Of a stretch of 64,000 bases of DNA, positions 5,480 through 36,646 are shown one piece after another. Source of the DNA: Akkermansia muciniphila. Its GTDB lineage: Bacteria > Verrucomicrobiota > Kiritimatiellia > RFP12 > UBA1067. Position 1 is the stretch's first letter, and every line of letters begins with the position of its first letter. Under the pieces are notes generated by a model. The model had not been told where the DNA came from and searched no databases. It saw only the letters and a list, made by a program, of their open reading frames with translations. The DNA lies in assembly GCA_945870145.1 (NCBI GenBank), contig CAMBQV010000001.1, forward strand, positions 495 through 64,494. Direction: 5' to 3'. Made by a program: the position numbers and the translations under genes.

Positions 5480-5484
5480 CTCCC

Positions 5485-13216: not shown

Positions 13217-14599
13217 CTATGCCTTTAAGACCCAGCCATTGAACATGGGGGATGCCTTCAGCTTGTCAGCTTCGGGATCGTTCACAAAACACTCGGTCTT
13301 GGGATTCCACTGAATCTTGTTGCGTCCAAGGCGCAACCCGATATTGGCCAAATGCGCAATCGAGATCGAGCGATGTCCAATTTCACACGTGCAGATGGTG
13401 GGTTCGCCGCCGTAGATACAGTCAATGAAGTTGCCCTCATGGCGGGCGCTCTTGTAGAGGCGAACAGACTTGTCATCCAACTTGGTACGGATGAGCTCCG
13501 CGGGCGTGGTCTCAAGATTGCCACGTGTCACAAAGATCTTTTTTCCTCCCTCGCCGTAGAAAGTAATCCCATTCGTAAACGCATCACTCACAAAGACACG
13601 CGTCCCTTCCTCATAGACCACCTCAAAGGAGTAGTGCGCAGCAGTGTTTAGAATCTTGTCGCGAGAGGGCATGTCGCTCTTGAGATTTTCAATTGCGACG
13701 GGGCCCGAGTCATCCTTGCCCAAGGCCCACTGAACAATGTCCAAGTGATGCGCACCCCAGTCCGTAATTGCACCGCCAGAATAATCCAGATTATTACGCC
13801 AGGTCATGTTGCGATGCAAGGCAGGGATGTAAGGGCGTTTCTGAGCTGGGCCCAGCCACAGATTAAAGTCCGTCATCCATTCCGGTATGGGTGCCGGTTC
13901 TTGCGAAAAGTCTGCATCGCTCTTCTTCCAGCGGAAGTGGCCTCCTGGGAGACCGACCTCAATCTTCTCAAGTTTGCCGATCACGCCATTACGAATAAAT
14001 TCGCACGCCATACGAAAATAATTGTCAGAACGTTGCTGGGAGCCGACCTGGAAGGTTACTTGGTTCGCCTTGACCGTATCAGCCATATAACGGCCCTCGG
14101 CAATGCAATAGGACATCGGCTTCTGACCATAAATATGAAGGCCCTTGCTGGCGGCATAGACCGTCTGGAGTCCATGCCAATGATCGGGTGTGCTGATCAG
14201 CACGGCATCTAATTTTTCCTTTTCAATCATCTCTCGAAAATCAACGTGGGTGGTACAGGCCTTGTAGCCTGGCTGGTTTAGCTGTTTGGCATAAAATTCA
14301 TCAATGATTCGCTTTCCGGCAAGACGTCCACCCTTGCGGTTCGGATCTGAAGAATATCCATGACATCCTGTTTCGGAAACAGGATCCGCCACGGAGACGA
14401 CCTGAACCTTGTCGTTATTTAAAAAATTGCCGATGTTATCCCCTGCCATGGTACCAAATCCGATCACCCCGAGCTGGATACGTGCGGAGGGAGCGGGGCG
14501 TCCCTTACCCAAGGCTCCGATCGGAATGATATACGGAGCGACAGCAGCAGTCCCTAATCCTGAAACAAAGGAACGACGTGAAACATGTATTTGATTCAT
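13217..14599 (-). CDS. Gfo/Idh/MocA family oxidoreductase with twin-arginine (Tat) signal
   Basis: SRRSFVSGLGTAAVA Tat motif; Rossmann GxGxxG region; conserved STPDHWH, GxQxRS, VGLPGG and HHLDIVQW blocks shared with the other two paralogs in the window. Confidence 0.8.
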   Translation of the reverse strand: MNQIHVSRRSFVSGLGTAAVAPYIIPIGALGKGRPAPSARIQLGVIGFGTMAGDNIGNFLNNDKVQVVSVADPVSETGCHGYSSDPNRKGGRLAGKRIIDEFYAKQLNQPGYKACTTHVDFREMIEKEKLDAVLISTPDHWHGLQTVYAASKGLHIYGQKPMSYCIAEGRYMADTVKANQVTFQVGSQQRSDNYFRMACEFIRNGVIGKLEKIEVGLPGGHFRWKKSDADFSQEPAPIPEWMTDFNLWLGPAQKRPYIPALHRNMTWRNNLDYSGGAITDWGAHHLDIVQWALGKDDSGPVAIENLKSDMPSRDKILNTAAHYSFEVVYEEGTRVFVSDAFTNGITFYGEGGKKIFVTRGNLETTPAELIRTKLDDKSVRLYKSARHEGNFIDCIYGGEPTICTCEIGHRSISIAHLANIGLRLGRNKIQWNPKTECFVNDPEADKLKASPMFNGWVLKA

Positions 14600-14822
14600 A
14601 ACAGACTCCTGATAGGTGACACCCTTTTGAAAAAGAATCTTTTTAGTATGAACCTACAGCCCTCATAAATCAACAAAAAAGGGGAGTGAAAAACGGGCTC
14701 ATGCTTGTATTCACAACGGAAATACGTTATCCTATGGCACCTATGAACCTCTGTTTTATGACGCATAAAATGGAGTTGTGAAAAATTAACATGCGGAAAC
14801 CCGCATTTAGGAGGAAAACCCC

Positions 14823-16403
14823 ATGACAACACAATTTGCATGGTATGACGTGAGTGATGCAACGGTTGCATTACTCTTTGGATTGGCTGGTGTTCTGGGC
14901 GGTTTTGCGCTTCGGGGACTTATTGGAAAATGGCAAGCCAATACGATCGAGAAACAAGCCAAACTGAAGTTGGATGAGGTGGATGTCGAGGTCAAGAGCA
15001 AAATGAAAGAGGCCGACATCTTGGCTCGCGGGGAGGTCGTCAAGGCTAGAGAAGAGTTTGAAAAGGGCACCAAGACGAGACGCAAGGAGTTACAGGACAT
15101 CGAAGACCGACTCACGATCCGCGAAGAGAACATGGATAAAAAGGCTGCCCTCCTCGACAAGAAAGACCAGACCGTTACACAGAAGCAGGAAGAGGTGCTC
15201 CGAAAAGCCGAGGATATCCAGCAGAAGCGCCTAGAGACTGACCGTCGTGTGCAAGAGGCGGATGCCCGTTTGCAAAAATTAGCCAGCATGACGTACGAAG
15301 AGGCAAAGCGCGAACTCTATCATCGAGCTGAAATTGAGGTGAAGAGTGAGTCTGGCAACCTGATCCGAAAACTTCAGGAAGAGGCCAAAGAGACCGCAGA
15401 AAAAGAGGCCACACGTATCGTCACCATGGCGATCCAGCGATTTGCCATCGCTCATGCGAGCGAAACGGTCACCACGACGGTTCATCTTCCGAGCGACGAT
15501 GTCAAGGGACGCATCATCGGTCGCGAGGGACGTAACATCCGAACCCTTGAGGCGTTGACTGGTATGACCATGTTGGTGGATGATACACCCGAAGCCGTCG
15601 TCATCTCCGGCTTCGACCCGATTCGGCGTGAAGTGGCTCGCCAAACCCTTGAACTGCTCGTCGCAGACGGACGCATCCACCCGGCACGCATCGAGGAGAT
15701 CGTCAAGGATGTCACCGACAATTTGGACAAGACCATCCGTGAAGCCGGGGAAGCCGCTGCGTATGAAGCCCAAGTCCAAGGGGTTTCGGCTGACCTGTTA
15801 CAACATATTGGACGCCTCAAATTCCGTACTAGCTTCTCGCAGAATGTTCTGCGCCACTCCATCGAAGTCGCACACCTCATGGGACTGATGGCTGCAGAAC
15901 TGGGGCTCGATCCCGTCATCGCTCGACGCATCGGGTTCTTCCACGACATCGGCAAGGCTTTGGATCATAACGTAGAAGGCGCGCACGCGGTGATTGGCGC
16001 GGACCTCCTCCGGCAAAACGGCGAGAGTGAAATGGTCTGCACCAGTGTCGGAGCGCATCACGGTGACCTCCAGGCAGAGGGCGTCTATGGCGTGCTTTGC
16101 TCAGCCGCGGATGCGATTTCAAGTTCCCGCCCAGGTGCACGTAGCGAAAACATGGGACTCTATGTCCAGCGTCTAGAAAAGCTGGAGGCGATTGCCAATG
16201 CCTTCCCGGGAGTGAAAAAGACCTTTGCTGTCCAAGCAGGACGCGAAGTCCGGATACTTGTTGATCCTGTCCAAGTGAGTGATAACGACGCCATGGTGAT
16301 GGCACGCGAGGTTTGTCAACAGATCTCCGCAAACCTCCAGTTCCCTGGACAAATCCGCGTGGTGATCGTCAGAGAAACCCGCTGCGTTGAATACGCAAAG
16401 TAA
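14823..16403 (+). CDS. rny: ribonuclease Y
   Basis: N-terminal TM helix, coiled coil, KH domain (GRIIGREGRNIR), HD domain (HSIEVAHLMGLMAAELGLDPVIARRIGFFHDIGKA). Confidence 0.9.
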   Translation: MTTQFAWYDVSDATVALLFGLAGVLGGFALRGLIGKWQANTIEKQAKLKLDEVDVEVKSKMKEADILARGEVVKAREEFEKGTKTRRKELQDIEDRLTIREENMDKKAALLDKKDQTVTQKQEEVLRKAEDIQQKRLETDRRVQEADARLQKLASMTYEEAKRELYHRAEIEVKSESGNLIRKLQEEAKETAEKEATRIVTMAIQRFAIAHASETVTTTVHLPSDDVKGRIIGREGRNIRTLEALTGMTMLVDDTPEAVVISGFDPIRREVARQTLELLVADGRIHPARIEEIVKDVTDNLDKTIREAGEAAAYEAQVQGVSADLLQHIGRLKFRTSFSQNVLRHSIEVAHLMGLMAAELGLDPVIARRIGFFHDIGKALDHNVEGAHAVIGADLLRQNGESEMVCTSVGAHHGDLQAEGVYGVLCSAADAISSSRPGARSENMGLYVQRLEKLEAIANAFPGVKKTFAVQAGREVRILVDPVQVSDNDAMVMAREVCQQISANLQFPGQIRVVIVRETRCVEYAK

Positions 16404-16416
16404 GGAGGAGAGCCTC

Positions 16417-17190
16417 ATGAAAATATTATTTGTCGGGGATATCGTCGGCGGGCCCGGTAGAAGGATCTTTGCGGAGGTGGTGAAAAAGCTCCGTTCCGAG
16501 AATGCTGTGCATGTTGTCATTGCAAATGCCGAGAATGCAGCGGCGGGCAATGGTATTACGCTCGCCTTGGCCAACGAACTCTTTAAGGCTGGCGCGGATG
16601 TGCTGACGCTTGGCGACCATGCATGGGGACAGAAGGATTTGGAGGCAGGTATCAGCGGGGAGAAGCGATTGCTTCGTCCGGTGAACTATCCGCCCAATGT
16701 CCCTGGCAACGGGTGTGGCACTTACCAAACCTCTCTGGGGCCTATCTCCGTTGTCAACCTGCAAGGTCGTGTCTTCATGGGCCCAATGGACTGTCCTTTC
16801 CGAGCCATGGATGCTGTACTGAAGACGTTGCCGGCCAATGCCCCTGTCGTTGTTGACTTCCATGCAGAGGCAACCTCGGAAAAGATTGCTATGGGCCACT
16901 ACCTCGATGGCCGTGTCGCGGCGGTTGTGGGTACGCACACACACGTGCAAACCAGCGATGCCGTACTCCTGCCCAAAGGAACGGCCTACATGACCGACCT
17001 CGGCATGACAGGTCCTTCGCTCTCGGTCATTGGTCGTGAAATCGAACCTGTGACCCGAAAATTTCTAACGGGTATGTCGACCAAATTTGATGTGGCTGGC
17101 GGACCGGCCGTACTCGAGGGCGCTCTCCTCGAACTTGAAAATGGCACCGGCAAGGCCCTCTCGATCACGCCGTATCGCTTCAGGGAGTAA
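16417..17190 (+). CDS. ymdB: YmdB-like metallophosphoesterase (TIGR00282 family, 2',3'-cNMP phosphodiesterase)
   Basis: MKILFVGDIVGGPGRRI...ANAENAAAGNGIT...; conserved rny-ymdB gene order. Confidence 0.85.
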   Translation: MKILFVGDIVGGPGRRIFAEVVKKLRSENAVHVVIANAENAAAGNGITLALANELFKAGADVLTLGDHAWGQKDLEAGISGEKRLLRPVNYPPNVPGNGCGTYQTSLGPISVVNLQGRVFMGPMDCPFRAMDAVLKTLPANAPVVVDFHAEATSEKIAMGHYLDGRVAAVVGTHTHVQTSDAVLLPKGTAYMTDLGMTGPSLSVIGREIEPVTRKFLTGMSTKFDVAGGPAVLEGALLELENGTGKALSITPYRFRE

Positions 17191-17197
17191 CACTCTC

Positions 17198-18466
17198 ATG
17201 CACGAGACCCTCAAACCCCTCTCGATCACCGAACTGACGCAGCGCATCCGTTCTGCGGTTGAACCTTCGTTCAGTTCGGTCTGCGTAGAGGGGGAGCTCT
17301 CGGGCTTCAAGACCTATACGAGTGGCCACAGTTACTTTACACTCAAAGACGCCGGGGCTCTGCTAAACGCTGTTCTTTTCTCGAGCGCTCGTGCCAAGCT
17401 CCCAGCGGAGCTCGTGCTGAAAGATGGACTCAAGATCCGCGCACAGGGCTCCATCACCGTCTACCCAGAACGGGGCCAATATCAGCTGGTGGTCCGACAC
17501 CTTGAACTGGCTGGCGCTGGTGACCTGATGCAACAATTTGAGGAGCTCAAGAAGCGGCTTCAACAGGAGGGGCTCTTTGCGCCTGAACAGAAAAAGCCCT
17601 TACCTCTCCTACCCCAACGTGTTGGTATCGTGACCTCTCCCTCTGGCGCGGTTATCCATGACATCATCACTGTCCTCGGCAGGCGCTTTCCCAACCTCCA
17701 TATCCGCCTCGCCCCTGTCAAAGTCCAAGGCGAGGGTGCCTCGACCAGTATTGCCAATGCCATACGCTTCTTTAATGCGTCAACAGAATGGGTTCCTGAT
17801 GTCTTGATTGTGGGACGCGGGGGCGGGAGCATTGAAGATCTCTGGGCTTTTAACGAAGAGCCTGTTGTGCGCGCGGTTGCAGCATCGCGGATTCCGATCA
17901 TCTCCGCAGTGGGACATGAAACGGATTTCACACTCTGCGACTTTGCCGCTGACCTCAGGGCCCCAACACCCTCTGCCGCAGCGGAACTGGTGATCCTTCC
18001 TAAAACCGAGTTCCAAGCAAGACTCCAACGCCTGCAGGAAGACCTCCGCCAAGCCCTCTCCCGTCGTCAAGAGAAGAACATGCAGCGCTTGGACGACATA
18101 GATGGTCATCTACGCTCGGCGCTTCAACAAAAGGGCCAGCAATTCCGTAAGCGCGTCGAACAGGCTAGCGCACGCCTCGGAGTCTTGCGGGAACGTCAGA
18201 CGCGCACCTTGGAGTCACGTCTCGGACTTCACGAACAACGCCTAACACAAGCCGCACACCGGCAGATCGAACGTTCGCGGGCTCGCCTTGAGACCCTGAA
18301 ACGCCAGTTTGAGTTGCTGAATCCACTCGCTGTACTCGACCGCGGGTACAGTTTGACCCGCACGGCAGACGGACGACTCGTACGCTCTGTCAAAGATGTC
18401 TCCTCGGACACCCCCTTGCTGACGCAAGTTAAGGACGGCACTATCGCAAGCCGTGTCACACCATGA
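17198..18466 (+). CDS. xseA: exodeoxyribonuclease VII large subunit
   Basis: N-terminal OB fold (LSITELTQRIRSAVEPSFSSVCVEGELSGFK) and catalytic region (IVGRGGGSIEDLWAFNEE, AVGHETD); ATG at 17198. Confidence 0.9.
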   Translation: MHETLKPLSITELTQRIRSAVEPSFSSVCVEGELSGFKTYTSGHSYFTLKDAGALLNAVLFSSARAKLPAELVLKDGLKIRAQGSITVYPERGQYQLVVRHLELAGAGDLMQQFEELKKRLQQEGLFAPEQKKPLPLLPQRVGIVTSPSGAVIHDIITVLGRRFPNLHIRLAPVKVQGEGASTSIANAIRFFNASTEWVPDVLIVGRGGGSIEDLWAFNEEPVVRAVAASRIPIISAVGHETDFTLCDFAADLRAPTPSAAAELVILPKTEFQARLQRLQEDLRQALSRRQEKNMQRLDDIDGHLRSALQQKGQQFRKRVEQASARLGVLRERQTRTLESRLGLHEQRLTQAAHRQIERSRARLETLKRQFELLNPLAVLDRGYSLTRTADGRLVRSVKDVSSDTPLLTQVKDGTIASRVTP

Positions 18467-18870
18467 TCAGTCCTGGAACCATCGAGAAGATTAAAGAGCT
18501 CATGACCCTCGCAAGTCTCTTTGAGGAGGACCTGGAGGAGAGCTTCATCCTCGGTTCAGGTCCAGGCGGGCAGAAGGTCAACAAGACCTCCTCAACGGTT
18601 CGCCTCTATCATGCGCCGAGTCAACTCACGATCAAGTATGGGGCAGGACGGTCACGCGAGATGAACCGTTGGCTCGCCCGGCGCGAACTCGCTGAGAAGA
18701 TTTTAGAAAAGGAAAAATCCGCTCTCTCCTCGCGCAGGCAGGAGGTCGAGCGGATTCGTCGCCAAAAACGGCGTCGTTCACGTCGTCAAAAGGCCAAAAC
18801 CGTGGCTGAGAAGCGGATACATGGCGAAAAGAAGGTTGATCGCCAACGCGTCACCTCTTTTGACGAGTAA
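18463..18870 (+). CDS. arfB: ArfB-like peptidyl-tRNA hydrolase (RF-1 domain, GGQ motif) with basic C-terminal tail
   Basis: GSGPGGQKVNKTSSTVRL GGQ motif; Arg/Lys-rich tail; 135 aa. The ATGA start overlaps the xseA stop. Confidence 0.6.
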   Translation: MISPGTIEKIKELMTLASLFEEDLEESFILGSGPGGQKVNKTSSTVRLYHAPSQLTIKYGAGRSREMNRWLARRELAEKILEKEKSALSSRRQEVERIRRQKRRRSRRQKAKTVAEKRIHGEKKVDRQRVTSFDE

Positions 18871-18878
18871 ACGCGTGG

Positions 18879-19688
18879 TTACTTCGCGAGATAGTCGTTA
18901 TACCACTTCACGCATTCAGCGACTTCGTCCACCAGCTTGTCAGACATGTGCTCATATTCACAGGTCAGGACGCCATTGAACTTTTGACGCTTCAGTTCAT
19001 CCATCACCTTTGAAAGATCTGCGCAACCTTTGCCATAGGGTACGACACGTCCTTTGGCATCCAAACTTGCCACATCCACCAGATGCAATGTGGTGATGCG
19101 TCCTTCGAGCTTCTTAACACCCTCCAATGCGGGCTTGCCAGCATTGATCCAGTGTCCAACATCTGCGCCAGCGCCGATCGCGGGATACTTCGCCAGCACC
19201 GCAGCCATCGCGTCCGGGAAGCCGGCAGGCTGCTTATGATTATGCAGGGCGACCTTGATGCCAGTCTCTTTTGAAAGCGTGCTCAGAAGCTCCATATCTT
19301 TGTCGCTCTTGCCGACCTCGACTTGCAGTGTCTCGATGCCCATCTCCTTGGCGAAAGCAAAGAGCTGCTTCCAGCCCGCCTCATCCTTCGCGCCGCAGAC
19401 ACCGTAGTTAACCATCTTGATGTTCTGTTCCTTGAGGAAGGCTTTGATCTGATCCCGCGTGGCTTGGTCCATCGAGAACTGCGTGTTGCCCGTCATATCG
19501 CCACCTAGCTTCTGGCCAGGGTACGCCTCGACATATTCGAAGCCAATCTTTTTGGCTGTCTTGACGGCGTCCACGAACGACATGTTCCGGAACGAATAGA
19601 GCTGGAGCGCCAATTTTGGCTTCCAGGTTTCACACATGCCCGACAACGCCACACCAGCAACCATCATCCCCATGATTAAACGCTTCAT
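18879..19688 (-). CDS. secreted sugar phosphate isomerase/epimerase (xylose-isomerase-like TIM barrel)
   Basis: Signal peptide MKRLIMGMMVAGVALSG; QLYSFRN...GFEYVE...HNH...E motifs of the AP-endonuclease 2 / xylose isomerase-like fold. Confidence 0.7.
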   Translation of the reverse strand: MKRLIMGMMVAGVALSGMCETWKPKLALQLYSFRNMSFVDAVKTAKKIGFEYVEAYPGQKLGGDMTGNTQFSMDQATRDQIKAFLKEQNIKMVNYGVCGAKDEAGWKQLFAFAKEMGIETLQVEVGKSDKDMELLSTLSKETGIKVALHNHKQPAGFPDAMAAVLAKYPAIGAGADVGHWINAGKPALEGVKKLEGRITTLHLVDVASLDAKGRVVPYGKGCADLSKVMDELKRQKFNGVLTCEYEHMSDKLVDEVAECVKWYNDYLAK

Positions 19689-19815
19689 ACGAGTCTCCCC
19701 TAATCCTTTAATTTTTTAGCGAAACAAGGGGCGGCATCCAAAAAGCCACTCCCTTTATTCATCGTTGTCCAGTATAGTTAAAACCCTCTCCCCATTCGAG
19801 CCTTTTTTTAGCTCT

Positions 19816-20355
19816 TCACACCATCGGGCAGTCATTGCAATGTTTCTTGCGGTCGCAGGCGACACAGTGATCGCCACGCCACACCGCATCGAACTGCTCG
19901 ATCAGCGGGGTCAGAAGTGCAGCAGAGTCCGTCAAAATACCATTCTCAAAGTTCCGGCGCTTCACACTCTTGGCGCCCATACCTGCACCAGTGAGATTCG
20001 CACTGCCGAGATAGGCAATCTTGCTGTCGCAGATGACACACTTAAAATGGACCCTCGGACAGAGCATCCTTTCAAGTCCGTCAATGAGAAGCGGATATTT
20101 ATCAAAGTCCTCTCGAAAGGCTGGGCCTGGTTCCTTGGCATGGATGAGGCGAACCTCCACTCCCCGCGCAATCAGGTCAGCGAGAACTTCCAGAAACGGA
20201 ATCATCTTGCGCCCCTTCCCCGGATGCTCCGTATACATATCTTTAATATCCGCTGTCGCAATCCACAATTGACGTTCCACCTGCGGGACAAGATCCCGAA
20301 TCACTCGTTCAAAGATCTGTCGGTCTGAAACAAATTCGGTCATAGGCCCTCCCAT
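19816..20355 (-). CDS. phospholipase D-like (HKD) domain protein, Nuc-like
   Basis: Single HxK(x4)D(x6)GSxN motif HFKCVICDSKIAYLGSANLTGAG; 179 aa; C-terminal Cys cluster CVACDRKKHCNDC. Confidence 0.7.
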   Translation of the reverse strand: MGGPMTEFVSDRQIFERVIRDLVPQVERQLWIATADIKDMYTEHPGKGRKMIPFLEVLADLIARGVEVRLIHAKEPGPAFREDFDKYPLLIDGLERMLCPRVHFKCVICDSKIAYLGSANLTGAGMGAKSVKRRNFENGILTDSAALLTPLIEQFDAVWRGDHCVACDRKKHCNDCPMV

Positions 20356-20576
20356 TCAACGGGCCCACATCGTCCATCTCCCACTTGCGCATATCTTTTC
20401 CCTTTTGCCATAATGATAGGATAACCCAGTAATCGTGCATTGACAAGGTTAACCATTTTCAACGTGATTATTTCACACTTTTTACACTTGCCCCTGTGTT
20501 CCGTAGGGACTATACTTCTACAAGATATTCATGTTTTTAACATTCCTATTATTCACGAATAGAAGGGGAATTCATT

Positions 20577-21914
20577 ATGTCCACAGGTTACACTACAAGT
20601 CGTCGTTCATTGCTTAAAATGCTGGCCGCTTCAACAGCGGCGCCTATGATTGTACCTTCCCGCCTCTTTGGCGCGGATGCGCCTTCCAACAAGATCACAC
20701 TGGGCTGCATCGGTGTAGGCTGGCAGGGCGGCGGCAATCTCCATGCTTTTCTTGGTGAAGATATGTGTCGTGTCGTGGCCATCTGCGATGTGGATGAAGG
20801 CCACCTTAAGAGTGCCATTGACTCTGTAAACAAGCGCTATGGCAATCAGGACTGCAAGGGCTATAAGGATTTCCGCGAACTGCTCGCCCGCAAAGATATC
20901 GATGCAGTCTGCATCAGCACACCGGACCACTGGCATTCCATCCCGGCCATTGCTGCCGCCAACGCAGGCAAGGATATCTTCTGCGAGAAGCCGCTCTCGC
21001 ATACCCTGAACGAGGGCATCGCCATGGTCAATGCAGTTCAAAAGAACAATCGGATCTGGCAAACCGGCTCCTGGCAGCGCAGCCAAGGTCAATTCCGCTG
21101 GGCAGCTCAAATTGTCCAGAATGGCTTCCTGGGCAAGGTCACGAATGTAGAGGTTGGCCTGCCCTCGGGTCATGCAGATTTCGGGAAGACCGGCAAGGAC
21201 AAGCCTGACGGACCTGTTCCTGCTGGCGTAGATTATGATTTCTGGGTCGGTCCTGCGCAGATGATGCCGTTCAACCCCTGCCGCTTCCATAAGAACTGGC
21301 GCTGGAACTACAACACCGGTGGCGGCCAACTGATGGACTGGATCGGCCATCACTGTGACATTGCTCATTGGGGTCTTGCCAATCCGAAGTTCGGGTGCGG
21401 ACCCGATGACGCAATCGGACCCCTTGAGGTATCTGCAACAGCCGAGTACCCAGACAAAAACGCTACCTGGAACACCGCCACAAAATTCCGGCTTGATTGC
21501 AAATATCCAAATGATGTCTCTGTTGTCATTGCCGGTGGTCATAGCGAGATCAAGGGGGGCGCAAAATGGATCGGACCGAATGGCTGGGTACGCGTGGATC
21601 GCGGTACCATCGAGGCCTCTGACAAGCAGTTTATTCGCGACATACAGGATCGCGAAAAGAAGGGCGATCTTGATATCAAACTGTACAAGAGCCCGGGTCA
21701 CATGAGAGAGTTCCTTGACTGCATCAAGTCACGCAAACGCACGCTGACGCCTGTTGAGATTGCACACCGTTCGCAGACGCCCGGTCACCTGGGACACATT
21801 GCCGCAACGGTTGGACGTAAAATCAAATGGGATTCTGTCCAGCAGGTCATTGTTGATGATGCCGAGGCCACTAAGATGCTCTCCAAGAAGATGCGGGAGC
21901 CCTGGCAGCTCTAA
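20577..21914 (+). CDS. Gfo/Idh/MocA family oxidoreductase with Tat signal
   Basis: SRRSLLKMLAASTAAPMIV Tat motif; STPDHWH, GSWQRS, VGLPSGH and GHHCDIAHW blocks. Confidence 0.8.
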   Translation: MSTGYTTSRRSLLKMLAASTAAPMIVPSRLFGADAPSNKITLGCIGVGWQGGGNLHAFLGEDMCRVVAICDVDEGHLKSAIDSVNKRYGNQDCKGYKDFRELLARKDIDAVCISTPDHWHSIPAIAAANAGKDIFCEKPLSHTLNEGIAMVNAVQKNNRIWQTGSWQRSQGQFRWAAQIVQNGFLGKVTNVEVGLPSGHADFGKTGKDKPDGPVPAGVDYDFWVGPAQMMPFNPCRFHKNWRWNYNTGGGQLMDWIGHHCDIAHWGLANPKFGCGPDDAIGPLEVSATAEYPDKNATWNTATKFRLDCKYPNDVSVVIAGGHSEIKGGAKWIGPNGWVRVDRGTIEASDKQFIRDIQDREKKGDLDIKLYKSPGHMREFLDCIKSRKRTLTPVEIAHRSQTPGHLGHIAATVGRKIKWDSVQQVIVDDAEATKMLSKKMREPWQL

Positions 21915-21950
21915 GGCATGACAAAACACAAAACATTGCTTTGTTAAGAT

Positions 21951-22186
21951 TTTAACGCGAAAACCGCAATAAGAAGGGTGGTTATCACGTCTGCCTCACG
22001 CTGAATACAGCACGGCAGAACGGATAACCACCCAGATAAAGTGACTTTCATTTTCATCAGCAAAAAACGAGTTTTTTGCTGATGAAAATTAGTATGATTC
22101 AGCGCAAATGTCCGCTCCGCCGTCCATGTATTCATGGGTGAGGCGGGCGTGACATTTGCGCTCTTCTTTGCGGCTTTTGCGTTAAA
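21951..22186. mobile_element. MITE-like composite repeat, copy A (about 25-bp TIRs TTAACGC(G/A)AAAACCGC...; internal hairpin modules)
   Basis: 5' tttaacgcgaaaaccgcaataagaag versus 3' ctcttctttgcggcttttgcgttaaa are inverted. Internal 60-nt module gcgcaaatgtccgctccgccgtccatgtattcatgggtgaggcgggcgtgacatttgcgc is shared with copy B at 29830-30068. Confidence 0.6.
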
Positions 22187-22285
22187 GTATTCAGTCTTAG
22201 CTTAACACGTATGGGTTAGACCCCGACCATAGCACAGATGTAACCGTGCCCTCCATTACCACAACATCCTCTCACCGAAAAGGCT

Positions 22286-23767
22286 CTACTCCCGGATCTT
22301 CTTCGGGGTATAGACCTTGCGCTCATTGCCCGTGATCACCTTTTCGCTGTAGGGGGCGGATTGACCCGGTTTAAACGGGAACCCCCAACGGCTGAGGGCT
22401 TCACTTGCTGTCGGGAAGTCATCGCCGATACGCTTCAACTCTGCATCGAGTTGGGTTTCCAGTTTTGCACGCACGGAAGCAGTCGCCGGTTTTTCAGCAA
22501 GGTTATCCATCTGATGGGGATCTTTTTGATCATCAAACAAGAGCGTGTCACCGCCTTTTTGACGGATAAGGGTATACGAGGCTGTACGAATGGCACGATA
22601 CGGGGCAACATTGGAAATGAAGGGACTGACCTGCATATAAAGAGCGGCCCGGTCAGATTCAGAACCTGCGTTAATCAGCCCTGAGAGGTCTTCACCCTCA
22701 AGGGTTGTCGGTTTTGTAACGCCTGTCAACCCGAGCAAGGTCGGGAGGATGTCAGGTGTCGTCAGCGGTGTCGAGACCGTCCTCGGCGCAACAGACCCTG
22801 GCAGGCGCATCAAAAAGGGGACACGAGCCGATTCATCCCAGGCCACCTGTTTGGATGTGGGCCTTATGCCCTGCGAACCCATCATCTCACCATGATCAGA
22901 AGTAAAGATAAAGATCGTATTCGTGGTCAACCCCGTCGCATCAAGTGTTGTCAGCAGCTCCCCTACACACCGATCCAGCGCCGTACAGTGGGCATAATAT
23001 CCTTGTAACTCCGTGCGGATCTTCGTTTCATCACCCTTCACATTCGGCGCAAGACGCAGGGACTCCAGGGGGTACAGCTTCTTCATGTCTTCAGGCGCAC
23101 TATTATGGGGAAAATGTGGCGTGCCGTATGAGAGCATCAAAATAAACGGTTTATCCTCTTTAGTACGGGACTTGATATAGGCCTGGGCATCACGGGTTTG
23201 GGCATAAGCATCATATCCGTCCCAGAATTTTTTAACCTCTGAATCACCCTCATAGTAGTGCGAATTCTGATAGTTGTGGTCGCACTCTGCGACCTTCCAG
23301 TACTCCCACCCCTGGCGACGCTCGCGTGGAATAAAAGCGCTGCGACCTTGGCCATCCAGATGCCACTTGCCGATATAGGCCGTTGCATACCCTGCGGTTT
23401 TGAAGATCTCGGCCATACACAGTTCTTCGTCCGGCAGATGCAGATCGTTCAGAAACATACCTGTCGAGGTCGGGAAACGGCCAGTAAGGAGTGACGCCCG
23501 GTAAGGCGTGCAAACGGGGCAGACAGAGACTGTATTCCGGAAATTCAGTCCGTTTTTCGCCAGTCGGTCGAGATTTGGCGTCTTGATATTCGGATCGCCC
23601 TCATATCCCATAGCCTTCGCGCGCCACTGATCAGCAAGCACAAAAACGATGTTCTGTTGTTTGCCCGCTGGCGCATTCTGCGCAACGGAGGTCAGCGGCT
23701 GAAGAGCGATCATGGCTGTCACACAAGCTCCGCCCAGAATAAAGGATCGGCAATTTCTACCATTCAT
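22286..23767 (-). CDS. sulfatase (formylglycine-dependent arylsulfatase family), secreted
   Basis: CTPYRASLLTGRFP (C-x-P-x-R sulfatase signature), VFVLADQWRAK, signal peptide from MNGRNCRSFILGGACVTAMIALQ. The track ORF extends to 23818. Confidence 0.85.
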   Translation of the reverse strand: MNGRNCRSFILGGACVTAMIALQPLTSVAQNAPAGKQQNIVFVLADQWRAKAMGYEGDPNIKTPNLDRLAKNGLNFRNTVSVCPVCTPYRASLLTGRFPTSTGMFLNDLHLPDEELCMAEIFKTAGYATAYIGKWHLDGQGRSAFIPRERRQGWEYWKVAECDHNYQNSHYYEGDSEVKKFWDGYDAYAQTRDAQAYIKSRTKEDKPFILMLSYGTPHFPHNSAPEDMKKLYPLESLRLAPNVKGDETKIRTELQGYYAHCTALDRCVGELLTTLDATGLTTNTIFIFTSDHGEMMGSQGIRPTSKQVAWDESARVPFLMRLPGSVAPRTVSTPLTTPDILPTLLGLTGVTKPTTLEGEDLSGLINAGSESDRAALYMQVSPFISNVAPYRAIRTASYTLIRQKGGDTLLFDDQKDPHQMDNLAEKPATASVRAKLETQLDAELKRIGDDFPTASEALSRWGFPFKPGQSAPYSEKVITGNERKVYTPKKIRE

Positions 23768-23840
23768 TTTATGTCCCCCAAAAATCGAATAATACTCTTT
23801 TGCGGTTGGCTTGGGCAAGACGCAATTTCAAACTGTGATC

Positions 23841-24557
23841 CTATGCCAGGCGCTCGCGCAGATAGGCTTCAAGTTGTCGGACAAGGACAGGATCAGCGGC
23901 GGGGACATCGGGAAGTGGCAGGTCGCGTCCGAGGGCCTGATATTTTTCCGCGGCCATCGTGTGATAGGGCAACAGCTCGACCCGCTGAATACAGGTATAG
24001 GGTTTTAACAGGCGCGCCAAGGCATCCATCACCTCTCGCGTGTCGCTCCAGCCCGGAACCACCACATGCCTGATCCAGACAGCTTGGTGCTGTTCTTCAG
24101 CTTGCTGGAGAAGTTTTAAAGGCCCCTCGAGTCTGCCCCCGGTCAAGGCGTGGCATTTCTCGGAATCAGGATGTTTAATATCCAACAACAAAAGATCTGC
24201 TAGCCGAGCAGCCTCCAGTGCAGGAGCTGTCACGCACACGCCACTGGTATCAATCGCTGTATGAATGCCCTTCGCCTGGCAGGCCTTGAGGAGCTCGGCA
24301 ACCGCCTGAGGCTGCGCCAGGGGCTCACCGCCGGAGAGTGTCACCCCTCCCCCCGGTCCAAAGTACGGACGCGTCCGCTCGATTGTATGCATGAGCTCTG
24401 CAAGGGCCATCTCATGTCCACCCGCAAAACTCTGGGTGTCCGGATTCTGGCAATAGAGGCAACGCAGCGGACAGCCCTGAAAAAAGATGACACAACGCAC
24501 CCCGGGACCATCCACACCCCCGAGTGTCTCAATGCTATGGATACGGCAGTTGTTCAT
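23841..24557 (-). CDS. pflA: pyruvate formate-lyase activating enzyme (glycyl-radical activase)
   Basis: GGVDGPGVRCVIFFQGCPLRCLYCQNP radical-SAM motif; 238 aa; start codon abuts the pflB stop. Confidence 0.9.
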   Translation of the reverse strand: MNNCRIHSIETLGGVDGPGVRCVIFFQGCPLRCLYCQNPDTQSFAGGHEMALAELMHTIERTRPYFGPGGGVTLSGGEPLAQPQAVAELLKACQAKGIHTAIDTSGVCVTAPALEAARLADLLLLDIKHPDSEKCHALTGGRLEGPLKLLQQAEEQHQAVWIRHVVVPGWSDTREVMDALARLLKPYTCIQRVELLPYHTMAAEKYQALGRDLPLPDVPAADPVLVRQLEAYLRERLA

Positions 24558-26804
24558 TTAGAGTCCTGTGTGAAAGGTGCGCGCAATCACTTCATCCTGC
24601 TGTTTGCGGCTCAAGCGTGTAAAGTTGACTGCATACCCGGAGACGCGAATGGTCAACTGCGGGAAACGTTCCGGATGGGCCTGCGCCTCCAGCAGTTGTT
24701 TCCTATTCAAGACATTCACATTGAGGTGATGGCCAGCCTGTCCGAAATACCCATCGAGAATCTGAGTCAGGTTGGTCGTCTGTTCTGGAAGGACAGGACC
24801 GAGGCTCTCGGGTGTGATGGTAAAGGTGCAACTGATGCCGTCACGGCAACTATCATACGAAATGCCCGCCACAGAGTTCAGCGAAGCCAAGGCTCCGCGA
24901 CCATCGCGATTGTGCATGGGATTGGCCCCGGGCGCAAAGGGCTTACCCGCAGGGCGTCCATCGGGGGTCGCGCCTGTCGCGCGTCCATAGACCACATTCG
25001 AGGTGATGGTCAATACGGAGAGGGTGTGAATGGCATTGCGATAGGTGGAATTCTTTTTCAGTCCTTGTTCAAAGTCTTTGACCAACTCTTGCGCCATGCG
25101 ATCCACGCGCTCGTCATCATTCCCGTAACACGGGAACTCCCCCTCGATCCTGAAATCAATAGCCAGTTCACGGTCATCCTGCACAGGCGTCACGCGGGCA
25201 AAGCGAATGGCGCTCAAGCTGTCCGCCATGACCGAGAGACCTGCCAGTCCGAAGGCCATGAAGCGTTCCACGTCAGTATCATGCAGGCTCATCTCCAACT
25301 TCTCATACGCATACTTGTCGTGCATGAAGTGGATAATGTTCATGGTATTGACATAGAGCTCGCAAAGCCAGTCGGCATAGAACTGGAATTGCTCTTTCAC
25401 CTGCTCATAGTTTAGCTTTGCTCCTGTCAGCAATGGACGCTCCGGCGCAATCTGAAGTCCAGAGGGTTCATCCCTGCCTCCATTGATCGCGAGCAGCAAC
25501 ACCTTGGGCAAGTTACACCGTGCGCCGAAGTACTGCATCTGCTTGCCGATCTTCATGGCCGAGACGCAACAGGCGATGCCGTAATCATCACCGTATCGGG
25601 GACGCATCAAGTCATCATTCTCATACTGAATCGAATCCGTCTCGATGCTGACCTTCGCGCAATACCTGCGAAACGCGACGGGCAACTGCTTCGACCAGAG
25701 GATCGTGAGATTAGGTTCCGGTGCATGTCCAAGCGTATAGAGCGTATTCAGGAAGCGATACGTGGTCCGCGTCACCAAGGTACGGCCATCCTCGCCCATG
25801 CCTCCCAACGCCTCTGTAATCCACATCGGATCCCCGGCAAAGAGATCATTGTATTCGGGTGTCCGGAGCTGACGCGCCATTCGTAACTTCATCACAAACT
25901 GATCCACCAGTTCCTGTGCCTGAGCCTCCTGAAACAAACCATTTCGCAGATCGCGCGCAATATAGATGTCCAGAAATGAACTCACACGGCCGAGGGACAT
26001 CGCTGCGCCATTCTGCTCTTTAATAGCACCTAAGTAGGCGAAGTAAACCCACTGGAAAGCCTCTTGGGCCGTGCGGGCAGGAGTGGATATATCCAGTCCA
26101 TACGCAGCCGCCATCTCTTTGAGTTTCTGGAGGAAATCCATCTCCTTCCACAACTCCTCACAGCGCCGGATCGTCTCTTCGGTCATGGGTGTCGCAGCAA
26201 GAGTGTCTTTGTCCTGTTGCTTATCTTTGATCAACGCGTCAACCCCGTACAGTGCGACACGCCGGTAATCGCCAATGATGCGTCCGCGGCCGTAGGCATC
26301 CGGGAGGCCCGTGATATACCCATACTTTCGCAAGAGCAACATGGTTTGGTTATAGACATGAAACACGCCATCATTGTGTGTTGTCCGATAAGCGCACGCC
26401 CGTTCCACCTCTTCACCCAGCTTGTATCCATAAGCCTCGCACGCCTGGCGCGCCAGTCGCAGACCGCCAAAGGGATTAACGCCACGGCAGAGCGGCTTCT
26501 CAGTCTGCAGCCCCACAATCAGCTCATTCTCGCGATCCAGATACCCCGGCGTATATGTCAGGAGGGAGGAGACCACATTGACATTCACATCAAGAACGCC
26601 CCCTTTTGCAGCCTCCTGGCGCAAGAGCTCCTGAAGCTTCAGGTTCAAGGCCTGCGTACGGGGGGTCGGTCCGGAAAGAAAGGACTCATCACCCCCATAA
26701 GGGGTCACGTTTTGCTGGATAAAATCGCGGACGTCGATGGCGTGTTGCCAACCGCCGGAATGGAAGCCTTGCCAGGCTGTTTCACATACTGCCGAACTCT
26801 TCAT
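24558..26804 (-). CDS. pflB: formate C-acetyltransferase (pyruvate formate-lyase)
   Basis: 748 aa; glycyl-radical motif RVSGYAVNF near the C-terminus; PFL fold throughout. Confidence 0.9.
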
Positions 26805-27036
26805 GCTGGGCGTACTCCTTGTCTCTTATGACATTGATCAGGGCGCCCAGGCGGTCGGCAGTTAAACGATACAGTCCCTCGTGGTGTCAACCCACACACA
26901 ACATGTCGTTGCGTTTCCGCCAGTCCTGTATCGAAGAAATTGTTTTAAAGTGTACCTGATTTTCTCTTCGGATGCCACTCTTTTTAGGTGACAACCGCGG
27001 AACCATGATTTATCCTTAACCCCGACGAAAGATAGA

Positions 27037-27078
27037 CTGGAATATTGGGATGCTGGAACAATGGAATACTGGAAGAGG
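27037..27078. repeat. tandem (C)TGGAATA(T/C)TGG units just upstream of P-type ATPase start
   Basis: actggaatattgggatgctggaacaatggaatactggaagagg; same unit family as the 3721-3865 hairpin. Confidence 0.4.
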
Positions 27079-27094
27079 AGAGGTGGAGAGAACG

Positions 27095-29791
27095 ATGAAT
27101 AGCTGGCATACTTTGGATACCGAGGCCGCACTGAACCATTTGCAAACAAACATGCACCAGGGCTTGTCAACAGCACAAGTAACCGAGCGTTTAGCGAAAG
27201 ACGGCCCTAATGAATTGATTGAAAAAGGAGGGCGCACCCCCTTTCAAATTTTATGGGAACAGGTGACGGCAACCATGGTTCTGATCTTGGTTGCCGCTGC
27301 CGTCATTTCAGGTTTTCTGGGCGACACCAAAAATCTCATCGCCATCCTCTCGATCGTCGTCCTCTACGCCTTCCTGGGCTTCATCCAGGAGTACCGTGCC
27401 GAGCGCGCGATCGCGGCACTCAAGAAATTGTCGGTTCCCCATGTGCGCGTCAAGCGAAATGGACAGATCGTTGAATGTTCTGCAAGCGAACTTATTGCTG
27501 GTGACATCCTGTTGCTTGAAACAGGAAATCTCATCCCTGCGGATGTGCGATTGCTTGAAGCGGTCAATCTGCAGGTGCAGGAGGCAGCGTTGACAGGGGA
27601 GTCCGAACCCGTCGAAAAGCAGACCCGTCCGTTACCCGTGCTGGAACTTCCGCTCGGCGATCGCCGCAACATGGCATACATGGGGACCATCGTGACACAA
27701 GGACGCGGAGAAGCCGTCGTGGTGGCCACAGGCATGAATACCGAGCTGGGCAAGATCGCCAACTTGATCCAACAGGTTCCTCAGGAGGCGACACCGCTCC
27801 AGAAGCGACTCGACCGACTCGGCAAAAGCATGGCCTTGGTGGGTGTCATTATCGCAGGTCTTATTTTAGTTATCGGCCTCTGGCACGGCGATGATATCCG
27901 CCACATGCTGTTAACCGCAGTCAGCGTCGCTGTGGCAATCGTTCCCGAAGGGCTGCCTGCCGTGGTGACCATCACCCTGGCTCTCGGCGCTCAGCGCATG
28001 CTCGCACGGAAAGCATTGATCCGGAAGCTGCCCGCTGTCGAAACGTTGGGTTCCGTCACCGTGATCTGTTCGGATAAAACAGGGACCCTGACTGAAAACC
28101 GCATGACCGTCGTGGTACTCGATGTAGTCGGTCACTCCGTTGACCTGACTGAGGAGATGAAAAATTCAGGCAGTTTTCAATTCCAACGCTGGAGCACGCA
28201 ATCAGCCTCTGCTCCTGAAAGCGCATTGGATCTGCTTTCGGTCGGTGGCGTTTTATGTAATGACGCCAAGCTCATTGAGCAGACCGAAGGACGTTATCAT
28301 ACTTTTGGCGATCCGACCGAAAGTGCGCTGGTTGTCGCGGGCGCCAAGCGCGGCTTCTGGAAAGAGGAGATGGAAACTGATTTTCCGCGCGTCTCCGAGT
28401 TGCCGTTTGACAGCGATCGGAAGCGGATGACCACCCTTCACACCGTTGCCAAAAAAATACCCGCATGGGGAATCACCAGCCCGTATCTGGCCTTCACAAA
28501 GGGGAGCGCAGATGGATTGCTGGAGGTCTCCTCGCATGTCCGAGTCAACGACACGGTCGAGGTAATGGATGATCAATGGAAAGGACGCATTATCGCCTCC
28601 GTAGAGAAGATGGCCGCACGCGGCATGCGGGTCCTCGGCGTCGCTTATCGGACGCTTGATCAAATCCCTGCCCCTGCAGAGACAGAGAAAGACCTCATTT
28701 TTGTGGGGCTCTTTGCCATGATTGATCCCCCGCGGCCAGAGGTCAAAGATGCTGTGGCGTTAACCAAGAGCGCCGGAATCCGCACCGTGATGATCACGGG
28801 CGATCATCCGCTGACCGCGGTGGAGATCGGACGGCAACTCGGTATCTCAGAAAACAATCAAGCGCTGACCGGGGTGGAGATTGAGCGGATGTCCCCTGAA
28901 GAGCTCAAGGCCAAAGTCGCAACTGTGAATGTCTTTGCACGCGTCTCGCCCGAGCACAAGATTAAAATCGTCCAAGCCTTGCAGGAGCTCGGACATATCG
29001 TCTCCATGACAGGTGATGGCGTCAACGACGCCCCGGCGCTACGGCGTGCCAACATCGGTGTGGCCATGGGTATTACCGGCACCGATGTTTCAAAAGAGGC
29101 GAGCGACCTGGTGCTTCTGGATGATAATTTCGCGACCATCGTGGCGGCGGTCAAGGAGGGCCGCACCATTTACGACAACATCCGCAAGTTTGTGCGCTTC
29201 AGCGTGGCAGGAAATATCGGCAAGGTGCTCGTGATGCTGATCGCGCCCTTTTTGGGCAAACCCATTCCGTTGCTGCCCTTGCAGCTGCTCTGGCTAAACT
29301 TACTGACCGATGGCTTGCTGGGATTAGGGCTCGGCGTGGAAAAATCCGAGAAGGATACAATGCAGCGTCCCCCCTACTCGCCTGCGGAGGGCGTCTTCAG
29401 TCAGGGGTCCGGTCGCCAGACCCTTGGAACCGGACTCCTGATCGGTCTTTTGTGCCTCGGGATCGGTACGTGGTATTACGCCAACAATCGCGACGAGTGG
29501 CAGACTATGATTTTCAGTTCGCTCGCCTTTGCGCAAGTCGGGCAGGCGCTCTCCAGCCGTTCCAACCGTGAATCCCTTCTGCAACTCGGTTTAGGAAGCA
29601 ACCCGCTGATGACAGGCATGGCCCTGCTGGTCACAACACTCCAGCTCGGCGTGCTCTATATTCCGCCAGTGGCCTCCTTCTTCTCTGTCGTCCCTCTGGG
29701 ACTCCTCGATCTCGCAATTGCGTTGGGGGCTGGCCTCTTGGTCCTCGTCATCCTGGAGCTTTTCAAAGCCAGCCGAGCTGGAAAACTCTAG
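27095..29791 (+). CDS. cation-transporting P-type ATPase, Ca2+-type (type IIA-like)
   Basis: DKTGTLT phosphorylation site, [11 protein letters not shown] hinge, TM4 PEGLP motif typical of Ca-ATPases; RBS GGAGAG then ATG at 27095. The track ORF starts earlier at 27050. Confidence 0.85.
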
Positions 29792-29829
29792 TCTTTTTTT
29801 ATCACAGTTTGTCAAAAAACTGCTGAAGC

Positions 29830-30068
29830 TTTAGCGCAAAAACCGCTAAGAAGAGCTCAAATGCCTCGCCCGCCTCACCCGTGAATACACGGACGGCGGA
29901 GCGGGCATTTGAGCTGGCAATAAATCTTCTACATTTAATTACTGTGAACACTAGTCATGAGTAATTTAACGCTTTCTTAAACTTCCGCGAGGCTATCCAT
30001 TCCGCCGTCCATGTATTCATGGGCGAGGCGGATGAGATAGCCTCGCAAAATTTGCGGTTTTTGCGTTA
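29830..30068. mobile_element. MITE-like composite repeat, copy B
   Basis: TIRs agcgcaaaaaccgctaagaag and gcaaaatttgcggtttttgcgttaag. Contains the 60-nt hairpin module twice, once inverted (29851-29912) and once direct with a different stem (29984-30045). Lies between convergent ATPase and cstA ends. Confidence 0.6.
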
Positions 30069-30094
30069 AGATTTCTTAGAATCGCTAGCAGCCA

Positions 30095-31948: not shown

Positions 31949-32033
31949 GTCCAGAATTCTGCAGTGGCAAAATTCTCAAAAACACTCTAATCCAGAACCA
32001 TGCTCTGTGAGAACCAATGAGTTACGCTTTTCC

Positions 32034-36530: not shown

Positions 36531-36646
36531 ATTGCCTTATTACCGCTTCGCTTTCGGCGTTCGCCTAATGGTTACGGCTACGTAACGAGCCTCATTGCCT
36601 TATTGCCTTATTTTTAACATTCGTGTGGTTCGTGCCATTCGGATGC
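36531..36646. repeat. ATTGCCTTATT repeats plus dispersed 34-bp repeat (inverted copy of 62586-62616)
   Basis: attgccttatt at 36531 and 36592-36613. cattcgtgtggttcgtgccattcggatgct (36617-36646) is the reverse complement of agcatccgaatagcacgaaccacacgaatg at 62584-62613. Confidence 0.45.

Follow-up and report, generated by a model that had tools for sequence, protein, structure and literature searches.

A dispersed family of miniature inverted-repeat elements with a covarying hairpin-pair core, a probable portable terminator, in freshwater PVC bacteria

The 64,000-nucleotide stretch of contig CAMBQV010000001.1 (assembly GCA_945870145.1) analyzed here, referred to below as the window, contains two intergenic repeats, copy A (21951-22186) and copy B (29830-30068), that had been picked out by a sequence-only reading as elements resembling miniature inverted-repeat transposable elements (MITEs). 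Their positions are confirmed, as is their placement between convergent genes: Gfo/Idh/MocA and sulfatase for copy A, P-type ATPase and CstA for copy B. Each is an inverted pair of ~90-nt half-modules, consisting of a 62-nt hairpin followed by a U-rich tail, with the tails facing outward and a central hairpin in between. We consider it likely that the two repeats are members of a MITE family mobilized in trans, that the core acts as a portable bidirectional terminator or insulator, and that the window copies themselves are relics.

The repeats are not products of chance. The terminal motif TTTGCGGYTTTTGCGTTAA has four matches with 0-2 mismatches in the window, where ~0.03 would be expected by chance, and a 30-nt hairpin apex core, CCGCCGTCCRTGTATTCAYGGGYGAGGCGG, occurs three times against an expectation of 0. 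A looser pattern, GCCGTN{4,5}TATTN{4,6}GYGAGGC, reveals a fourth core at 21993-22016(-), within the left hairpin of copy A. A covariance model run over the 64 kb returns exactly four half-modules at 95-107 bits, the next independent match scoring 12 bits. A chance origin of both window copies is therefore excluded. These results revise the earlier picture in part. Copy B had been credited with the module twice, once inverted, and two half-modules in opposite orientation are indeed found there. The extra hairpins of copy A had been called unrelated; its left hairpin is in fact a diverged subtype of that module, which gives each copy two inverted modules and the window a total of four rather than three. 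The proposed 60-nt hairpin module survives, while its 11-bp stem is replaced by an interrupted stem of 26 bp within ~62 nt. Similarly, the 25-bp terminal inverted repeats are genuine inverted repeats that do not mark the ends of the element; they are subterminal, the true termini lie outside them, and the repeated unit reaches ~21929-22227 for copy A and ~29794-30093 for copy B. The parts of both copies are listed in Table 1.

When aligned, the four half-modules of the window show a common design. An outer stem of 11-12 bp, which differs in sequence between copies, leads inward to a 3-bp step with one bulged U per strand, a 5-bp stem CCGCC/GGCGG (CUGCC/GGCAG in the left hairpin of copy A), an internal loop with G on one strand and UGA on the other, and an inner stem of 5-6 bp (CCAUG/CAUGG, CCGUG/CACGG or GCUG/CAGC) capped by an apical UAUU loop. 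The U-rich tail that follows ends in GCGGYUUUUGCG, and throughout the family each hairpin is followed by an outward-facing U-rich tail with terminal GCGGYTTTTGCG. The conserved core measures 180-292 bp, mostly ~230 bp, and the short centre between the two hairpins usually forms a third hairpin. Half-modules fold at -43 to -52 kcal/mol (z-scores -6 to -8) and the two whole window elements at -137 and -131 kcal/mol (z ~ -12), the predicted single-strand fold of the whole element being a four-way junction with a base stem built from the two tails. A tRNA-like identity for this cloverleaf was dropped, ARAGORN having made no call.

Among 59 distinct half-modules, with shuffled and slid alignments as controls, 96% of cells are paired and both-sided changes occur at 18 of the 26 pairs; the covariation score is 0.475, compared with 0.18 for the shuffled and 0.05-0.10 for the slid alignments. 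These data show that the hairpins are maintained by compensatory changes, which the sequence-only reading had asked about and which are abundant between copies. One U.G pair is invariant on the tail-bearing strand. Outside it the stems hold 12 G.U pairs versus 4 A.C mismatches, an excess that weakly favors the tail-bearing strand as the structured one. A search of Rfam 15 with both loci, at the gathering threshold and at E<=10, gave no family match; the models that did match were generic microRNA-precursor hairpins only, at 14-27 bits versus gathering scores of 63-100.

Across the retrieved copies the outer stems fall into discrete subtypes, with near-identical copies within each. The subtypes belong to two hairpin classes, alpha (T1, T4 and T5 outer stems) and beta (T2 and T3), and in every typable pair an alpha is joined to a beta; no such pair has both hairpins from one class. 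Since T1+T2, T1+T3, T4+T2 and T4+T3 are all present around the same central hairpin, the modules recombine, and the suggestion of recombining hairpin cassettes is borne out by this free combination of T1/T4 with T2/T3. The difference between alpha and beta stems makes one long perfect palindrome impossible for the element, an inability that we infer helps it persist.

The copies outside the window come from one degenerate-pattern scan of a genome collection. Matching loci were retrieved with their flanks, and are thus selected by hairpin presence, and half-modules were re-detected in the retrieved DNA by covariance model and nhmmer. The scan gave at least 105 loci, about ten of which are chance matches inside genes of unrelated bacteria. 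The remainder, among the matches listed, fall in 13 assemblies, mostly metagenome-assembled genomes (MAGs) of the Planctomycetes-Verrucomicrobia-Chlamydiae (PVC) group together with the 6.1-Mb chromosome OW818680.1; other carriers are a Lake Loclat MAG (CAIZQW01) and MAGs labelled Kiritimatiellia, Lentisphaeraceae or Akkermansia. In OW818680.1 at least 44 pairs lie within 45 retrieved 8-kb blocks, and the copies are spread over the chromosome. The retrieved DNA as a whole contains 183 half-modules, forming 75 pairs, every one with its tails outward, and 33 singles. Whole elements elsewhere are 77-94% identical to the window copies over 230-290 bp, and the further copies that the earlier proposal depended on are thus plentiful in related genomes. 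The viral collection held no copies of the family. Named homologues of the window Gfo protein belong to Verrucomicrobiota (75-78% identity), and exact-match look-ups for three window proteins returned no records. The probable host is accordingly an uncultured PVC bacterium of stratified lakes. Uncultured freshwater PVC bacteria of one clade (Verrucomicrobiota/Kiritimatiellota-like) carry the family in abundance, and it is apparently undescribed, with no Rfam match and no description found in the literature searched.

Full-length relatives extend 8-54 nt beyond the tails to true terminal inverted repeats with flanking duplications. These forms are ~260-300 bp long and non-coding, only spurious open reading frames (ORFs) crossing the repeat. 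Directly at the tails, where the sequence-only reading had placed the ends, no duplication signal is seen at any fixed offset from 0 to 19. When the flanks of 66 elements were compared with a shuffled-partner control, exact direct repeats of >=8 nt were present in 14 (6% in the control) and of >=9 nt in 7 (1.5% in the control). Three kinds of termini are found (Table 1). Besides the exact duplications of the copy-B type, three loci of this type (L060, L030 and L007) match at 6 of 8 positions. Full-length A-type copies show an 8-bp duplication directly after the outer inverted repeat CTTAGCTTAACACGTATGG, and at L083 an exact 8-bp duplication, TGCCACTA, lies outside variant arms without the left outer repeat. 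The copy-B outer motif is tightly tied to the core, all 18 of its occurrences lying beside a hairpin module and none away from one.

The ends point to known transposase families. The outer-repeat consensus GGTTCTTCACGGTTTGTCGAAAAA is identical at 17 of 24 positions to the left inverted repeat (IRL) of ISArsp7, an ISL3-family element that makes an 8-bp duplication (PMC6305408), and an ISL3-derived MITE of Microcystis aeruginosa has GGCTCTTCG ends and 8-nt duplications (PMC11448079). The ISL3 hallmark, GGCTCTT-start repeats with an 8-bp duplication, is seen in five B-type copies with exact duplications. The CAGGGC ends and 10-bp duplication of the T5 type fit a published ISAs1-family example. 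The MITE-like label is accordingly upheld for a dispersed multi-copy family with 8-bp and 10-bp duplications in full-length relatives and presence/absence differences at both window sites. Target-site duplications, also raised earlier, are present in those relatives and not clearly so at either window copy. With degenerate outer repeats in copy B, an outer repeat missing from copy A and no clean duplication at either, the window copies are probably decayed and immobile relics.

Comparison with close relatives shows that both window sites are occupied in some and empty in others. Copy B is present at site B of contigs L106 and L107, which are 98.7% identical to the window in nucleotide sequence. 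In the sister species L109 (91% nucleotide identity, 96% CstA identity) the cstA and ATPase stop codons overlap in TTAA with nothing between them, and the ATPase protein has the same length as in the window. The simplest model has the element inserted where the stop codons overlap, each diverged 8-mer copy still supplying a stop; here CTCTAGTC and CATTAATC match at 5 of 8 positions and both proteins keep their length. An alternative, insertion inside the last ATPase codons, gives GCCAGCCG and GCTAGCAG, which match at 6 of 8. Copy B has 0 substitutions in 303 nt between the window and L106/L107, strains that differ by 1.3% overall and by 2.4% in other intergenic DNA. This invariance fits constraint or homogenization and is effectively a single comparison.

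At site A, the same-species contig L117 (from the sample of L106; 96.5-98.9% identity) has a 76-nt intergenic region, 67 nt of which do not align to the window, and which carries a canonical bidirectional terminator with a 12-13-bp GC stem and U-runs on both strands. This terminator recurs in the sister-species contig L115 and is therefore ancestral at this site. In the window ~348 nt (about 21938-22285), comprising copy A and associated repeats, replace a ~53-nt terminator-bearing stretch of L117 segment 8123-8189. The interpretation of part of the window as flanks left over from the L115 terminator was abandoned, since the stretch concerned resembles the left arm of the element. In a third relative, L113, this position is taken up by 8-nt repeats in an inverted array, so that one convergent site holds a tandem array in L113 (7390-7500), copy A in the window and a canonical terminator in L117. 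The identity of L117 to the window is 96.5% left of site A (window 13802-21923) and 98.9% right of it (22286-28928), a change that suggests a recombination breakpoint at the element. Elsewhere, an OW818680.1 locus (L007) has an element in a divergent promoter region that is free of one in the window.

The elements lie in convergent (20), tandem (30) and divergent (9) contexts, against a background of 57, 131 and 56; they are thus enriched at gene 3' ends, yet not confined there. At least one gene end is found beside 85% of elements, and the distance from stop codon to module, mostly outer arm, has a median of 36 nt. Together with the replacement at site A, the stable hairpin and U-rich tract that the far half-module would present from either side make a portable bidirectional terminator the most probable role of the core. 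In the mechanism we propose, DDE transposases recognizing the outer repeats would move the elements in trans, the mover of the copy-B type being, from its GGYTCTTCACGGTTTGT ends and 8-bp duplications, a putative ISL3-family enzyme. Transcription entering from either side would read through to the far half-module, where the very stable hairpin and U-rich tract would stop the transcript or protect its 3' end, and the element would act as a portable bidirectional terminator or insulator. Such behavior would explain both the tolerance of elements right against stop codons and the ability of one to stand in for a native terminator.

Several points weigh against this reading. As regards the putative terminator role, the U-rich tails are interrupted (UCUUCUUUGCGGCUUUUGCG; subtype T5 has GAUUUUUUG), the U-tract itself being broken (UCUUCUUUGCGG) in most subtypes, and a simple terminator scan, a method ill-suited to long interrupted stems, did not call the 62-nt hairpins and reported one short alternative stem per element. 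Placement between divergent genes accounts for 9 of 59 elements (15%), and the cstA/ATPase pair of L109 does without any intergenic terminator. Copy A replaces an ancestral terminator rather than being simply inserted beside it, which requires recombination or insertion followed by deletion. Part of the invariance that the alignment shows at hairpin apex and tail stems from the search pattern and seed filter, which required these sequences. With regard to mobility, neither window copy has a clear target-site duplication, copy B reaching 5/8 or 6/8 at best depending on the boundary, and the ISL3 and ISAs1 assignments are suggested by end similarity to published examples and by duplication length. 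Neither the window nor the retrieved loci, which were chosen for the hairpin, yielded a parent transposase with matching ends. An ISL3 transposase (DDE_Tnp_ISL3) is not among the top 25 families listed for the 64-kb window; clustering of element-adjacent ORFs gave no recurrent transposase, only sulfatase/Gfo paralogues and spurious repeat-spanning ORFs; where two elements enclose a gene, it is a housekeeping one, such as that for arginyl-tRNA synthetase (ArgRS); and BLAST of the outer repeat against plasmids gave chance matches only.

A broader possibility, which we hold tentatively and judge rather less probable than its negation, is that the hairpin-pair core is a self-contained cassette, either a portable bidirectional terminator/insulator or, as RNA or single-stranded DNA, a binding site of a host protein; MITEs of at least three transposase families (ISL3-like, ISAs1-like and a third) may each have acquired it separately, and it may be kept by selection and be displacing native terminators in these genomes.

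Of the rival explanations, the one that fares best, though we think it unlikely, holds that the repeats are host-selected intrinsic terminators or other structured RNA (e.g., a protein-binding hairpin in the 3' untranslated region) spread mainly by recombination or gene conversion, their transposon-like ends being incidental. The strong covariation, the invariant U.G pair and the bias of G.U over A.C on the tail-bearing strand all speak for it, as do the absence of copy B substitutions between strains, the same core between three unrelated kinds of termini, copy A in place of a canonical terminator, and the gene ends beside 85% of elements. It is harder to square with near-identical copies of a subtype scattered around a 6-Mb chromosome, with duplications exactly outside the outer repeats, with some elements in divergent promoter regions, and with the lack of an Rfam family match. 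In any case this explanation concerns the function of the cargo, and is compatible with a MITE family.

More improbable still is an origin of the type known from the repetitive extragenic palindromic (REP) sequences, bacterial interspersed mosaic elements (BIMEs) and REP doublets forming hairpins (REPINs) of Enterobacteria and Pseudomonas, in which the hairpins would be recognized as single-stranded DNA by a REP-associated tyrosine transposase (RAYT; HUH Y1 transposase) with the inverted doublet as the unit of replication. The likeness is real: like REPINs and BIMEs, for which proposed roles include termination and mRNA stabilization, the elements are mostly extragenic inverted doublets of imperfect palindromes with a linker and a mosaic of subtypes (PMC3116915, PMC3333891). 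A Y1_Tnp gene is also present (L114 10965-11462) on a contig with a 90%-identical Gfo/Idh/MocA homologue. However, the hairpins here are about twice as long (62 nt versus 20-40 nt), the outer terminal inverted repeats and 8-bp/10-bp duplications are unexpected for HUH transposition, and no GTAG or CGTC tag is found at the hairpin foot in the aligned flanks (cf. PMC3733652). Moreover, the GC-rich hairpins on either side of the L114 RAYT are unrelated, and neither the window nor the retrieved loci, a limited sample in which no RAYT association was found, contain a homologue of it. As an observation in its own right, that locus (L114 10880-11600), with a 165-aa Y1_Tnp (RAYT/IS200-like) gene and short GC-rich palindromes on both sides (GTGCCCTGAAAGGGCAC, CCCGGGGCAACGCCCCGGG), looks like a classical REP/RAYT system distinct from the hairpin-pair family.

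Finally, the small-RNA gene of the sequence-only reading, taken as divergently transcribed pairs with promoters in the AT-rich centre and the hairpin and tail as RNA body and terminator, draws on that centre, on TAnnnT-like hexamers a few bases upstream of each hairpin and on the U-rich tract ending each half-module, and is very improbable given that sigma-70 promoter scans found none in either window element, that some centres of only 14-22 nt are too short for two promoters, that centres are not conserved between element types, and that Rfam holds no matching family. Integron attC sites were also rejected, as GTTAAAG and GTTAAGA do not fit GTTRRRY and the elements are isolated inverted pairs between unrelated genes.

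Table 1. Parts of the two window copies, outer termini of the family, and other repeats (window coordinates unless a contig is named).
Feature	Position	Strand	Sequence, score or remark
Matches to terminal motif TTTGCGGYTTTTGCGTTAA	21952-21970(-), 22167-22185(+), 29831-29849(-), 30051-30069(+)		
Copy A left outer arm	21915-21950		GGCATGAC...GTTAAGATTT; resembles variable A-type left arm GCAATATRCAAAG..TTTGTAATTAAAGATTTTAM of related copies; adjoins Gfo/Idh/MocA stop codon (21912-21914); A-type outer terminal inverted repeat absent on this side
Copy A beta half-module, subtype T3	21949-22038	-	95.4 bits, covariance model; hairpin GGGTGGTTATC..GATAACCACCC, apex CTGCCGTGCTGTATTCAGCGTGAGGCAG, then tail CTTCTTATTGCGGTTTTCGCGTTAA, the left terminal inverted repeat of the sequence-only reading
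Copy A central hairpin	22050-22089		perfect 18-bp stem ATTTTCATCAGCAAAAAA-CGAG-TTTTTTGCTGATGAAAAT; kept in most A-type copies elsewhere
Copy A alpha half-module, subtype T1	22097-22188	+	107.1 bits, covariance model; hairpin GCGCAAATGTC..GACATTTGCGC, apex CCGCCGTCCATGTATTCATGGGTGAGGCGG, then U-rich tail TCTTCTTTGCGGCTTTTGCGTTAA
Copy A right outer arm	22189-22214		ends in A-type outer inverted repeat CTTAGCTTAACACGTATGG (22196-22214)
Further repeated material right of copy A	22215-22285		up to sulfatase stop codon (22286-22288); GATGTAACCGTGCCCTCC (22237-22254) recurs beside A-type copies elsewhere
Copy B long outer arm, alpha side	29794-29834		TTTTTTTATCACAGTTTGTCAAAAAACTGCTGAAGCTTTAG; degenerate ISL3-like terminal repeat GGTTCTTCACGGTTTGTGGAAAAA..TTTTAG, with TTTTTATCACAG where ISL3-like ends have GGTTCTTCACGG; begins 2-4 nt past ATPase stop codon (29789-29791)
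Copy B alpha half-module, T1-like	29828-29919	-	103.4 bits, covariance model; hairpin AGCTCAAATGCC..GGCATTTGAGCT, apex CCGCCGTCCGTGTATTCACGGGTGAGGCGG, then tail CTTCTTAGCGGTTTTTGCGCTAA
Copy B central hairpin	29938-29965		ATTACTGTGAAC..GTCATGAGTAAT, within AT-rich centre
Copy B beta half-module, T2-like	29982-30072	+	99.2 bits, covariance model; hairpin GCGAGGCTATC..GATAGCCTCGC, apex CCGCCGTCCATGTATTCATGGGCGAGGCGG, then tail AAAATTTGCGGTTTTTGCGTTAA
Copy B short outer arm, beta side	30066-30093		TTAAGATTTCTTAGAATCGCTAGCAGCC; boundary approximate, partly manual alignment; ~54% match to consensus GTGAAWTTTTCGACAAACCGTGAAGARCC; adjoins cstA stop codon (30095-30097)
Copy-B type termini (ISL3-like)			GGYTCTTCACGG; 8-bp duplications
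Copy-B type outer repeat			GGYTCTTCACGGTTTGT...ACAAACCGTGAAGARCC; 8 bp, exact in L048, L035, L089, L057, L073
Copy-A type termini (CCATAGG ends)			CCATAGGTGTTAAGC; 8-bp duplications
Copy-A type outer repeat			CCATAGGTGTTAAGCTAAG...CTTAGCTTAACACCTATGG; 8 bp, L022 8/8, L045 7/8
T5-type termini (CAGGGC ends; ISAs1-like; other MAGs)			CAGGGCRAACGC / CAGGGCRAACGCATC; 10-bp duplications
T5-type outer repeat			CAGGGCRAACGCATCT; 10 bp, exact in L046, L031, L059; 9/10 in L070, L009
Short tandem arrays, window	1759-1931, 3721-3859, 5000-5479, 6392-6427, 27036-27074, 36589-36612, 55305-55339, 56226-56255, 60097-60132, 60934-60967, 61076-61157, 62619-62656		
Nested insertions in hairpin modules	L066 5528-5569, L075 4681-4801, L081 1645-1764, L092 3300-3420, L095 5442-5562, L104 926-1045, L063 6014-6131, L014 4957-5075, L006 2363-2516 and 5458-5611, L105 2835-2988		

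Other repeats and features were noted in the window and its relatives. In at least 10 hairpin modules a GC-rich insertion of ~30 or 62 nt is nested within the 3' arm, e.g., GGCGGGC[CAACGGAACCCGTGCGGGTTCGCCGGGCCCCT]ACATTT; it includes a small REP-like palindrome, which suggests a second small element targeting these hairpins. The window also has intergenic short tandem arrays with periods of 8, 13 or 16 nt, often as two inverted arrays able to form a long hairpin. Inverted short-period arrays (4996-5486 and 60098-61165) bracket each of two genes for 23S_rRNA_IVP/bAvd-like four-helix-bundle proteins (5036-5455 and 60174-60923, both -). The syntenic OW818680.1 region (L007 position 6962) lacks the first of these cassettes (~490 nt), which thus behaves as an insertion. 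A 40-nt inverted repeat, ATTTTTAACATTCGTGTGGTTCGTGCCATTCGGATGCTAA, is present with 90% identity in two distant intergenic regions (36610-36649 and 62584-62623), each beside a tandem array of 8-nt or 7-nt units, and probably represents a further small repeat family. Directly upstream of the genes for pyruvate formate-lyase (24558-26804, -) and its activase (23841-24557, -) is a ZMP/ZTP riboswitch (pfl motif; 26838-26937, -; 55.4 bits versus a gathering score of 39). Among the relatives used for site B, the same-species contig L106 has a ~2-kb insertion that the window lacks (1543-3621 versus window 38292-38359), with a Gp49 (HigB-like) and HTH_3 toxin-antitoxin pair and two small ORFs. L109 has two extra genes between those for pyruvate:ferredoxin oxidoreductase (PFOR) and cstA (4454-5922 versus the 119 nt of window 31914-32032), encoding an RNase D-like 306-aa protein and a 126-aa ORF.

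The family can be set beside several known systems. Correia elements (NEMIS) of Neisseria are MITEs of 100-160 bp with inverted-repeat ends and no identified dedicated transposase; they lie near genes and form long hairpins in transcripts, with reported effects on termination and RNA processing. Unlike the family here, they have a TA duplication, one long hairpin, and an unrelated sequence and host phylum. The BOX elements of Streptococcus pneumoniae are modular intergenic repeats of interchangeable boxes with stable secondary structures, but their modules are in direct order (A-Bn-C) and they have no sequence relationship to this family. ISL3-derived MITEs and ISArsp7 share with it ends beginning GGYTCTTC and 8-bp duplications, such MITEs likewise being small, non-coding and present in many intergenic copies. 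Here, however, the interior is not filler but a conserved pair of covarying 62-nt hairpins with U-rich tails, this interior is also found flanked by two further, unrelated kinds of termini, window copy B has only degenerate ends, and no ISL3 transposase is linked to the family. With canonical bidirectional terminators the elements share a stable GC-rich hairpin and U-rich sequence from either direction and a place between convergent genes. They differ in having two hairpins, one per direction and each at the far side, and interrupted U-tracts, and in being a repeated, mobile unit 4-5 times longer.

MITEs and REP-like repeats are well known, so it is the family that seems new and not the kind of element. 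What is unusual is that one covarying hairpin-pair core lies inside MITEs with three kinds of ends, and that at site A an element occupies the place that a canonical bidirectional terminator has in a same-species contig and in a sister species. In practical terms, the family gives rise to assembly breaks and spurious small ORFs in the MAGs that carry it, and it can serve as a strain-level marker. The mobile DNA of uncultured freshwater PVC bacteria is little studied. If the terminator role is true, these elements would be mobile DNA that carries its own transcriptional insulation and rewires the 3' ends of genes; if the core is indeed a captured cassette, they would be transposons that domesticate and spread a regulatory RNA structure.

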